Position numbers and translations under genes: made by a program. Below, piece by piece: positions 47,706 through 52,973 of a stretch of DNA of 64,000 nucleotides. The notes under the pieces are model-generated. The model saw only the letters and a program-made list of their open reading frames with translations. It made no database searches and was not told the DNA's origin. Position 1 is the first letter of the stretch. The number at the start of each line of letters is the position of its first letter. Source of the DNA: Lama glama (Eukaryota); NCBI GenBank assembly GCA_028534125.1, contig CM052816.1:10356001-10420000 (forward strand), written 5' to 3'.

Positions 47706-50450
47706 CAGAAAGAGCTTGCTTTAAATCTAGGCTTTTTCCATTATTAGCCATGTAATCTTGGGCAAATTGCTTTGCTTCTTATTTCCTCGTTCTAAAATGG
47801 TGATAATTATAGTCTGCCTCGCAGGCTTATTGAGAAAAAATAAATGAGTGAATGAAGGTAAAACACTTAACATGTTGTCTGGTCCCTAGAAGGCTTTCAA
47901 TAAATATTAGTCATTGTTATTATAAGGGTGAAGGTGGAGAGGTGCAGGGAACCTTGACTGGATTCCAATTTCCCAGCTCTATGTTGTGAAAAGGCTGGAA
48001 ATGACAATTTTGAGGAGAATTAAATTATACAGATATTGTATTTAAAATCACTGTTGAGAGAAAAGAAAGATGGTCTTCCTTTACTCCTCTCACCATGGAA
48101 ACCAGGCCTAGAAAACCCAGATGCACATTTTCTGATTTGGCTCCAAGAAAATAGCCCTTAATGTGGAAACCCAGGAAACCTGGGGAATCAACTCATCAGA
48201 CCAGCAGGCTCAGAGATTCCTTTTTATCAGCTGAGCACCGTGGGTTTTAGGCAGAAAAATGGGCTGAATTATATGTGCCCATTATTTCTGAAGTAACAAA
48301 AGAGACTTTTCCCTCCCACTGATAATTGGAAGCCAGGACATTTGCAGTTGTTCAAATACCATATAAAATAAGGCTCATTTTTCCCCAGAGAAGATTTCTT
48401 TCTCTGGGGAAGTGAGGTGGCCCGGCATGGTGGGGTTCTCTTTTCCTTTCTCTCTTTAGTTCCACGAGGAAGAGAGCCACATATTAAAAGGAAGTGGCAT
48501 TGCTCTTATCCTTAACTTCAAGCTCAAATACTTTGGCTGCAAATGGCATGCCATAGCTAGCAATTCGTTCCACCCCAGAGTTAATTCCACCGGTTTAACC
48601 AGCAACATCTCCCACTTTAAAGCATCTCAACTAATTAGGGTAAGAAGCCTGAACAGTTTTGACTTTTCTGTCATCCGCTAACAACTATGCAGTGTTTAGC
48701 TGCCCGTTTTTGCTGGGTACGGACAGGGCTCCTTTAATAATAACTCATTCTGTTGCCTAATACAGTTGAATCCCTTTTGCGTATTAAAACATTTACATAT
48801 TTTAAAATTCAGCCCTGTGAAATATTAAAATGAGTCTCATATCTGAGTCAAAGCTTACCCACCCCGCCAGGCTGGATTCAGCCACCCTGGTGTCGGGATG
48901 GACGGCTGAAGTGGCTCTCACACCTCCTCCTCCTCCATCTCAGGGAGAGCACTGTTTGATTTAGATTGTGGAAAGGGAATAGAAGAGGCAGAGGAATCCT
49001 AACACAGGTAACCTGCTTGGTCCCCGGGATGATCTCTCTCTAGTGGCTTCTGATAGCTCAAAGTTCATGGTCTGTGGACAAGGCTCACCCCTGCCTGCAT
49101 ATGTATAGAGCTTTCAAACCACCCTATGTTCGGGTGTCACCTCCAGAGAGTCTGATACAGCTGGGTTCTCTTAGGACTGGTGGTGTCGCCATTAGGTCAC
49201 GCTGACGGGAGCCTCCCTCCCTCCACTTCCAGGCTGCACACCCCTAGGCAGTGGAGGGCCCGCTAGGAAGCTGGACCACACCCTCTGGCTAATCCGCCTC
49301 CCTCCAGCTTCCCGACACTCCCACGCACTGCTGCATATCTCTGCCCGCTACTGCCATGGTCCCCAGCAAGACCTGACTCCAAACTACCAACCCACTGTGG
49401 CCAACTCCGGCTCTGTGAGCCCAGGGAGCAGTCAGCAAGCAAAGTGACGAAAGAATGGAACCCCAGGTGCTTCTCCTCACAGCCACGCCCAGACTCGACA
49501 GAGAATTCTCTTGAGCTCTGACTTACCTGCCTTAGGAACAGCCGGGGGGGAGGGGAGGTACCCGGTGCCCCCAAAGGGCAAGGCTTCTCCCTTTATATCC
49601 CTGGGGTGGATGGGAGGTAGGGCTAGTTCTGCTACAATGATGTCTACTCAGAGTTGGCCGCCTTCAACAACAGAACTTAGGATTTGTATTACTTTGTGAC
49701 TGTTAACACAATTGTGAGACCTACTTGACAATTTGGGCACCTAATGCTACCTTTCAGTCACCCTTTGGATAAGTTTCAAATCTTCAAGCAAAGTCCAGGT
49801 CCTCTTCTTTAAAAAGGATAATTCATAGGATTGTTGTGATAAATCTAAAACCAACATTGTAACTGGAAGGCACTTTGCGAACTTTATATAGCCCTGTGCA
49901 TATTATGCAGTATTATGTAAATCACGGTTATGATAATACTGTCACTTATTACCATCTTTCTTATTGCTGCATCCTCTCTGTTTGATTCCATTTTGCTAAA
50001 CTCGTTTTATTTAGAAAGTCAGCTCCTTAGGCTGGAGCCCCAGTCTGTTTTGCTCCCTGTAAGATCACCAACACCTGAAACAGTGCTGAGCACACAGAAG
50101 CAAGCAGTAGGTATTTACTGAATTAATTACTAATATTCTTCATCAGGAAGGAGGGAGTCCTTCCTGATGAGTCCTAAATAACTCATAGAATAGTGTTTTC
50201 ACATGTAACCCAGGGCCCTCCCGAGTCAAGATCAGACTGGGTGCTTGGCTAAAAGGCGACTCCCAAGGCTCACGTGAGACCTGGGAAACCAGAAGCTGCG
50301 CAGGTAAAGTCAGAGGGGGCCTTATTTCTAGCTGCAGGTCCCTGCAGATGATCGGACCCGTTATCACAGTGCCCACAGCAATGAAAAGCAAACCCCTGCG
50401 CCCGGTCACGACGGCGGCTCGGGGTGGGGGCTGGGGGGAGGGGCGCCTAC

Positions 50451-50540
50451 CCATGTACGGCTTGGTGCCGGCCACGGCGGTGATGCGCACGTCCGCGGGC
50501 AGCGTGGTGGCGACGTTGAAGTCCGTGACGTGCGCGTGCC
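50451..50540 (-). CDS. STK32A: STK32A activation-segment exon ([30 protein letters not shown])
   Basis: ctcgcag| ... ATGG|gtaggc, 90 nt, phase 1-1; STK32-family DFN in place of DFG, plus GTKPYM. Confidence 0.95.
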
Positions 50541-52973
50541 CTGCGAGAGAGGAGGGCCACAGAGAAGTCAAGCCCCGCCCAGCCGCGCGGCGTGCCCTGC
50601 GCCTCCCCCCAAGCTTCTGGAAGCTTCGTCCGTCAGTTCTTGTGCGCACCCGGCAACCGGGCACACGCAGTTAAAAGCTCAATTATTGTATCCTCGAATA
50701 GTCTTAAACCAGCAACCCTCCAGCGGCCAGAACCTGATAGGAAAAGGTTAGTGTCTGGTTGTAAATTTGTAGTTAAGCCTCAGAAAGTTTTCACCTCGGT
50801 GGTGAAGAGCTTACGCTCTGGTAAATTCTACGTGGGCAATCTTTGTCTGTCGGCAGCATTTTAAGTTGCTGCAGCCTAGAGCTAGCTGAAGTGCCAACTT
50901 TCCAGGCACTTCTGACGGGATCCTTTTTTTTTAAAGAGACAGACGTTGTTAATACAAAGCGGACCCGAATACGGATACATAATATTTATTTCTTTGCCAA
51001 GAAAGAGTTCTTTTTTCTCCTTGTTTTTCCTAAATATCATTAGTAGTTTTTTGTTTTTGTTTTTGTTTTTTTGTTTTTTGTTTTTTGTCTGAGAGTTCAG
51101 GTTGTCCCGCAGTGATGCCCAACAAAATAACGCATCAAGGGAAAGCAGCGGGGGCGGGGGCAGGGGGAAGTCAAGTTTTATTTTTAAAGAGGCTGTATGA
51201 ATAAAGAGCCCTAGACTGGGAGCGAGGACACGTGGGTCATGCCCGGAATTCTGCGCCTAATACACTGTAGATTTGAAGTCTCTCTACTGTGTTGAACCTG
51301 CGTTTCCCTAAAAAAAAAAAAAAAAAAAAAAAAAAGGGTGGACTAGCTGTCCTCTAGGATCTCTCCTCAGTTTTAAATATTCATGGCGACAAACACCGGG
51401 TCTCACACTTGATTTCATCAGGGCGCGCACCCTACAAGGTGTATGTATCAGGGTCCTTGGGTTTATAGCGAGGAGTGGGAAAAGGGCGGTGCCAGAAGCT
51501 CAGGCAGACCGGCCCGTCCTGTTAGCTGCTGGCACGAGGGTCACCTGTTTTGAGAGGATCTTGAAGTGCTGGCATTTCCATTTGCGTGCTTCTGTGGTTC
51601 TGATGAGCTATGGTGGTAACTGGAGAGGATGTCACCGGATTCTTTTTCCACGTCTCACAGTCCACCTCCCCCTCTGCCAACTTCACTACCTACTCCATGA
51701 GAACACCCAGCTTGCTCTAACGGTAAATCTCACTGCTCTTCATCACCAGGGTTTTGTTTTGTGCAAAAGGTGTTTTGTTTTTATCAGATGACATTCTAAT
51801 AAAGCAAAAGCAGCACTCACTGAGCTGAAAGATGAGGTATTCTTGCATAAATGGTACCAAAAGAGAGGATTTCAAGAACTCACCCTTTTGTAATATTGGT
51901 CGTCTCAGTTTTTTCTTTCTCTGTTTCTTCTCCCTGGGTCGCATCCAACGCACTGAATCAATGATTCACAAGGTTTGATACAAAATAGGTCAGCCTGGAG
52001 GTTTAGTGATTGAGAAGAGCCTGTTTTCTGGAGTCAGACTTCGTGGCTTCTAGCCCAGGTTCTACCCCTAACTAGCTGTGCCTCCTTCAGGTGACTTATT
52101 GTCTCTGTAAAGCTGGAATATAGGAATAGTCTTCTCATGAGGTTGTTGGGAGGATCAGATGAAATAAGGCTGTGGAAGACTTAGCATTTGGCAGGAAGTA
52201 AGTATCCAATTGTTTGGTATTTGTCATGATCAGAAACTCCAGTGTCATTTTGCAAAACACACCTGCCCGACTTGACTCTCCTGAGACGCCAGTGCAGTGG
52301 GACTGATAGGAGAGCCAGGCATCCACGTTAAAAACAGTAACAGGAAACTCCACCAGTAATTCAGATGGGCAGCCAGGCATGGGACCCTCTCCTTGAGCCT
52401 GGCAGGTGTTCTAAGCCGTCTCAGTCCTGAGATTGTCTGTGCTCGTGTAGCAGTAGAAGGACGAGGATGTTGTAGAGCCATTTGGTTTTCTCACTTTAGG
52501 CTAGCAAAGTAGTCCCTGTTTTATAGAAGACCTGTTTGTGGCTAAGTTTTCAGGGCTCAGCAGTAGCAGAGCTAGGATTAAGATGTAGAATTTGGTCCAG
52601 GACTTCTTTGGTGAGTGATCAATCTCCCCAAAACTTTTTGTGCTATATGAAGAGACCAAAGAGCTGAACAAACTAAAAGAACTACCTTCTGGTTGACTCA
52701 GGGTTTAGTTCTCCCCACAGAATGCATAGGAAATGATGGGAAAGAATTATTTAAGGGTCAGGATCTAGCAGAACCTCTAGCCTTGAGCCCTCAAGGTGAA
52801 CAAGTAAAGCAGAGCTTCACGGAGCCGGTGGCCACCAGCCCAAAGTCTCAATTCCAAGTCCAGGATGCTGCCCTGCTTCCCTCTGCTCACCTTGAGGCTC
52901 TTTCTGCCAGGTTCCCTTCTGTGCCAGGTGGGAATGAATCTGAGAGCTGGCCCCCAAAGGAAGGTCTGGTGAT

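Follow-up and report, generated by a model that had tools for sequence, protein, structure and literature searches.

One coding exon of the kinase gene STK32A, in a 64,000-nt window of the Lama glama genome (GenBank assembly GCA_028534125.1, contig CM052816.1, positions 10,356,001 to 10,420,000; all positions below are those of the window), combines an isolated GC and CpG spike with a burst of amino acid changes in camelids. The exon (50451-50540, minus strand; 90 nt, phase 1-1) encodes residues 158-187, comprising beta-8, the DFN motif and the activation segment, and has seven camelid-derived residues. A local episode of GC-biased gene conversion (gBGC) in the camelid stem lineage is the best reading of these data and a probable one; as one cause it most simply accounts for third codon positions being saturated, for both intron edges being enriched and for a burst of A/T-to-G/C (weak-to-strong, W>S) changes concentrated on the camelid stem. 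A lineage-specific episode had been proposed from the sequence alone, and that proposal is supported in part: the burst of changes needing A/T-to-G/C steps is specific to the lineage and to the exon, and it predates the Camelus split; the direction bias of the amino acid changes is not significant by itself.

In such an episode, a strong, local meiotic recombination hotspot would have lain over the exon in the camelid stem, and GC-biased repair of heteroduplex mismatches would have favored G/C alleles across ~300 bp. This would have brought third codon positions to saturation, raised GC at both intron edges and fixed A/T-to-G/C amino acid changes of nearly neutral or mildly harmful effect, with selection retaining the catalytic residues D164, F165, N166, G182 and T183; the residues encoded by the exon are unchanged since the window's lineage and Camelus split. 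From the evidence below we infer that recombination was the cause, that the exon started out less GC-rich and that the effect was near-neutral.

The GC and CpG spike

The gene is camelid STK32A. The sole PDB match of the exon translation is human STK32A (4FR4), the exon residues of Camelus STK32A are identical, and the motifs DFN (replacing DFG), HRD and APE are all present. These motifs and the exon ends are retained as in the STK32A/B/C kinases described in the structural sources (4FR4; 10.1101/2020.03.04.976555; PMC6930252). The minus strand of the window carries eight STK32A coding exons, from the catalytic-loop exon (59430-59393) through the last exon (25733-25640).

Bounded by AG and GT, the 90-nt exon 50540-50451 is 71% GC with 15 CpGs and, as the sequence-only reading had counted, all 30 of its codons end in G or C. 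The proportion of G or C at third positions (GC3) is thus 30/30 (29/29 without Met), whereas the window's seven remaining STK32A exons together have 119/211 (Fisher p = 5e-7). The control exons include the upstream catalytic-loop exon (59393-59430, minus strand; GC3 5/12, again as first counted), the downstream exon, which begins at the APE motif (41994-42091, minus strand; 22/33), and five more between 25640 and 36063 on the minus strand (36063-35947, 33633-33508, 32172-32044, 26168-26104, 25733-25640).

The enrichment continues into the flanking introns. The maximal GC segment is 50393-50668 (276 bp) and the maximal CpG segment 50399-50666, and the spike takes in 58 nt of the downstream intron and 128 nt of the upstream one, close to the ~60-130 nt first estimated. 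Over the 281 bp of 50390-50670 it is 72% GC, with 35 CpGs and an observed/expected CpG ratio (o/e) of 0.97. The upstream intronic portion, with the acceptor site (50541-50668, minus strand), is 69% GC with 13 CpGs, and the downstream portion, with the donor GTAGGC (50393-50450, minus strand), is 79% GC with 7 CpGs over 50390-50450. The surrounding introns are AT-rich (41% GC, CpG o/e 0.23-0.27), the remaining STK32A span has at most 12 CpGs in any 281 bp, and the spike is the highest-ranking 200-bp CpG window in the 64 kb; the description of it as isolated was accurate. Selection on the protein cannot explain saturated GC3 (29/29) together with enrichment in both introns. Adjoining the spike, a shoulder of ordinary GC content (50669-51500; 42-45% GC) has a raised CpG o/e of 0.64-0.81, about three times the intron background, and may be a hotspot tail or a broader low-methylation zone.

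An assembly error or inserted repeat behind the spike is hardly credible. A single contig of an independent DNA run (X1) covers 48800-51038 with two differing letters, both outside the spike, and the C. dromedarius and C. ferus proteins have the same 30 exon residues as the window. There is no tandem repeat at the spike and no similar stretch of at least 35 bp elsewhere in the window. A scan of a metagenome collection returned one locus, a distant fish-like exon without a DNA match to the window; the STK32A exon on this contig (L001:397-469), apparently animal DNA of fish-like type, has 90-nt boundaries that coincide with those of the window exon. What favors an error is that three related runs (X15, X16, X18) have no cover over the exon and that the C. 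bactrianus model (P0004) breaks within it, agreeing at 21 exon residues before it diverges. After those residues P0004 enters intron-derived sequence before the next exon, a break that is probably a gap in GC-rich DNA. Among the differences listed between X15 and the window (40 of 83; 39 used), 8 are CpG transitions.

The sequence-only reading had offered an intragenic CpG-island promoter as an alternative, pointing to a GC box at 50573-50580. We reject the box as a chance occurrence, since 69% of base-shuffled spikes contain one. In a wider form, a CpG island or regulatory element within the gene, free of methylation in germ cells and under selection, would have made the spike without biased conversion, and the residue changes would follow from DNA-level selection for GC or CpG. 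The region satisfies the usual island thresholds, either as 281 bp (72% GC, o/e 0.97) or as 801 bp (56% GC, o/e 0.83), CpG o/e remains 0.64-0.81 as far as ~51500, and 14/14 third positions in CpG are intact. We nevertheless consider this explanation unlikely. An unmethylated state halts the loss of CpGs; it does not alone drive non-CpG sites to G/C or fix changes at otherwise invariant residues. No start or joint is seen in the RNA contigs, the comparison being with contigs only. Intact CpGs also fit normal decay, with a probability of no loss of 0.06-0.33 at assumed loss rates of 8-20%, and so they indicate neither a live hotspot nor an unmethylated site.

Amino acid changes in camelids and canids

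We aligned 54 named mammal proteins with the window translation and compared extant groups at each alignment column. The counts exclude the last 24 columns and, in 10 rows, mis-annotated stretches; P0170 and the seal record P0410 lack a usable segment. The direction of change was read from the residues of extant species, with the ancestral state at 169, 173 and 180 ambiguous on that basis.

The exon differs from human STK32A at 11 of 30 residues, as first estimated, and the catalytic-loop exon is identical to human, also as claimed. Four of the 11 differences are not restricted to camelids: hippo, whales and most ruminants also have T169, position 173 varies throughout the artiodactyls, and R176 and V180 are widespread among mammals. 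Seven camelid residues are unlike those of other artiodactyls, among which pig, ruminants, hippo and whales mostly agree: V160A, I162V, I167V, M170T, E174D, M175V and T179A. Positions 160, 167 and 179 are invariant in 28/28 other placental groups and positions 162 and 174 in 27/27 single-state groups, the exceptions being D174 in two baleen whales and L162 in mouse lemur. Given the window codons, one T>C or A>G step suffices to reach each of six derived residues from the residue of other artiodactyls; E174D requires A>C or G>C, and none of the seven is strong-to-weak (S>W).

Under a strict rule (at least 80% of other groups agree), camelids differ in 6/30 exon columns vs. 5/339 outside the exon (p = 6e-5). 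Of 840 exon cells in the other 28 groups, 14 differ, and the camelid excess over them is significant (p = 3e-5). On a fixed tree of 109 branches the camelid stem is the longest for the exon, at 0.81, and measures 0.034 for the remaining protein; the exon/rest branch ratio tree-wide is 3.5. These protein comparisons point firmly to a burst in rate that is specific to the exon and to the camelid lineage. Window and Camelus proteins differ at 0/30 exon residues and at 5-6 in other exons; the changes therefore predate the split of Camelus and the window's lineage. At the protein level this identity is compatible with a single branch, but saturation would mask a continuing episode. Counted by direction, camelids have 6 W>S changes in the 30 exon columns vs. 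2 in 339 outside (p = 4e-6), which ranks them first of 30 groups (Bonferroni limit for the ranking, 0.0017). Within the exon, the camelid W>S:S>W ratio is 6:1 vs. 7:11 for the other groups (p = 0.07).

Several observations, to which the missing cover in X15, X16 and X18 belongs, weigh against an episode of gBGC. The majority-based W>S:S>W ratio outside the exon is 87:44, and because the method yields this excess anyway the camelid 6:1 (p = 0.26; 6:0, p = 0.09) is not significant as a direction bias alone. A169T is an S>W change, though one common to hippo, whales and most ruminants. The exon middle varies across all mammals and, with only 30 sites, ratios of ~10-13 also occur on the branches of rhino, mouse lemur and sloth. 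GC3 of 29/29 is a proxy for synonymous W>S substitution, and the direction of change is seen in proteins only. The exon is also less extreme beside a neighboring DPYSL3-like gene at 190-16450: four of its exons have GC3 of 37/45, 32/55, 51/58 and 45/52 (165/210 in total), three of them attaining 82-88%, and the comparison with 29/29 gives p = 0.002 for all four and p = 0.03 for the three highest.

Positive selection in camelids could instead have reshaped the activation segment, for substrate choice or for freedom from loop phosphorylation, in an exon already GC-rich in mammals. The changes do cluster in a segment that is described as important for substrate recognition and poorly conserved between paralogues (10.1101/2020.03.04.976555), T179A and V160A agree with human STK32C, the new state is unchanged in both camelid lineages, and the W>S direction bias alone is not significant. 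Selection of this kind leaves the 29/29 GC3 and the intronic enrichment unexplained, however, and the changes are conservative, with W>S required for six of the seven. T178 and T179 are, moreover, not among the autophosphorylation sites mapped in that source, and we think it improbable that positive selection is the explanation.

Agreement with the paralogue also raises the idea that ectopic gene conversion from STK32C brought in the new residues, which we regard as very improbable. A160, T169, R176 and A179 agree with human STK32C, but V162, V167, T170, A173, D174 and V175 do not, and the STK32A-type L171-P172 is retained. The intron edges are enriched as well, and the paralogous proteins, at ~65% identity, are too distant for conversion.

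Canids rank second of the 30 groups, with 4 W>S changes in the exon (T163A, M170T, M175A, K184R) vs. 2/342 outside (p = 5e-4), under a ranking rule that was chosen post hoc, after the dog sequence had been noticed, and in a comparison at the protein level only. Phyllostomus is third (p = 0.03), and the other 27 groups give no signal. The canid segment is common to the dog, wolf and arctic fox records and absent from felids and mustelids. Pooled, camelids and canids have 10:1 vs. 7:11 for the other groups in the exon (p = 0.008). The canid changes appear to be independent of the camelid ones, hinting at a reused default hotspot. In canid STK32A (P0008, P0013, P0122, P0123, P0125, P0237) two of the four W>S changes are at otherwise invariant sites, and T163A abolishes an autophosphorylation site mapped in human. 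The pocket mouse protein (P0012) has a W>S excess across STK32A, with 19 W>S vs. 0 S>W changes outside the exon.

Consequences for the kinase

The column of T179 is that of the AGC activation-loop phosphosite, and T179A (codon GCC, 50475-50477, minus strand; Thr in 28/28 other placental groups) takes this usual phosphosite away. A structure-based alignment places T179 in one column with the threonine of SGK ‘STFCGT’ and S6K ‘HTFCGT’ (PMC6930252 supplement). The autophosphorylation sites mapped in the structure paper include T163 and exclude T178 and T179, and the same paper calls a role of PDK1 for STK32A unknown (10.1101/2020.03.04.976555). With Ala at 160 and 179 the camelid activation segment resembles human STK32C, which has Ala at both; because STK32C naturally has Ala at 179, harm from T179A is not shown.

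In the more distant family, 80 of 150 proteins gave 70 distinct segments, and A160 is present in 24 of them, V162 in 6, V167 in 20 and A179 in 6. Among 60 records of non-placental STK32A, position 179 is T in 44, S in 12, N in 4 and A in none, and position 167 is always I. The DFN, GTKPYM and catalytic motifs are intact in the camelid exon. Since the changes at 160, 162, 167 and 179 are each found in other STK32 family members and the motifs are intact, the camelid changes look, from these alignments, to be tolerated by the fold and atypical for STK32A; the earlier suggestion that a kinase had been remodelled was an overstatement. In mouse, STK32A knock-outs are reported to be viable and without overt defect, with disordered vestibular hair-cell polarity, an effect that depends on STK32A kinase activity (PMC10202454). 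Viable knock-outs fit weak selection against changes of this kind. T179A offers a natural test of the need of STK32A for loop phosphorylation.

Exactly this 90-nt exon is skipped in annotated isoforms of many mammals (17 records; P0025, P0028, P0035, P0184-P0197), and an exon-skipped isoform would lose the DFN motif and so be an inactive kinase. Camel and Myotis isoforms (P0002, P0003, P0005) lack the first 17 residues of the 33633-33508 exon, suggesting that they share an alternative acceptor there.

Comparison with known recombination systems

The camelid exon behaves like a known process, of which it is probably a new and strong instance, with added interest in the lost activation-loop threonine and the canid parallel. 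Riffis, Saclier and Galtier (2025, PMC12290510) report 29,845 gBGC episodes in ~70,000 rodent exons; 7,572 are punctual episodes, of which 2,159 have nonsynonymous W>S changes and 5,413 none, with an equilibrium GC3 of ~94% and a nonsynonymous W>S rate 6.9 times higher. Like those punctual episodes, the camelid case involves a single exon (the other seven have a GC3 of 119/211 and the rest of the protein a stem branch of 0.034) and apparently a single branch, with GC3 near saturation and raised nonsynonymous W>S. It differs in that punctual episodes are defined by synonymous substitutions, whereas the camelid case rests on amino acid changes and on GC3 as a proxy, and in that most punctual episodes are without nonsynonymous W>S changes while the camelid exon has six. 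Later compensation is described in that work, and the camelid exon has none between Camelus and the window's lineage. A preprint by Riffis et al. (bioRxiv 10.64898/2026.10.02.756222) adds thousands more episodes in five mammal groups, and camelids are not among the taxa of either study; the theory of episodes and back-mutation is treated in PMC11173204. The term ‘STK32’ is absent from the main text of PMC12290510, and a literature search returned no paper on STK32A with camel and none on this locus. As in Fxy (Mid1) of Mus musculus, gBGC would rapidly have fixed A/T-to-G/C amino acid changes; unlike Fxy, which entered a large high-recombination region, the camelid effect covers ~300 bp in an ordinary autosomal gene.

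The hotspot may have been PRDM9-directed or a default one, and we lean slightly to the former. In canids, which are without PRDM9, recombination takes place at hypomethylated CpG islands, sites that also serve many mammals in which PRDM9 is retained (Joseph et al. 2024, PMC11161765; camelids are unsampled in that study). Because default hotspots lie in hypomethylated CpG islands, the CpG island and hotspot alternatives may be one. The STK32A site resembles PRDM9-independent hotspots in its short, CpG-island-like GC peak (281 bp, 72% GC, o/e 0.97) and, more tentatively, in the second signal in canids; it is unlike them in lying mid-gene and not at a known promoter. Loss of PRDM9 in camelids is unsupported, as they retain an orthologue with KRAB-SSXRD-SET and intact catalytic tyrosines (PMC5519329 supplement 1). 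Zinc fingers are not listed in the table of that source for any placental species, not even human, and the table is thus uninformative on that PRDM9 domain.

A bolder and rather doubtful version would make the exon a conserved intragenic default (PRDM9-independent) hotspot, activated in canids and, as a separate event, in camelids, and in both cases shifting the activation segment to G/C-coded residues. Camelids, while keeping PRDM9, would then have long recombined at hypomethylated sites much as canids do, and the outcome in them would be a non-adaptive regulatory change, in which a kinase that controls the polarity of vestibular hair cells lost its AGC activation-loop threonine. Should the parallel in canids be borne out in DNA, the exon tests both whether default hotspots repeatedly strike the same coding sites and whether camelids use such hotspots heavily. 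A camelid gBGC episode would in any case show, in compact and extreme form, how such a process can imitate positive selection, and a selection scan would probably flag the camelid kinase segment.

An Rfam search gave 0 matches. Elsewhere in the window, assembly gaps occupy 26995-27494 (500 N) and 63722-63821 (100 N). The 3' exons of the DPYSL3-like gene are on the plus strand, tail to tail with STK32A, and past its stop codon there is a further CpG-rich stretch at ~16700-17400.

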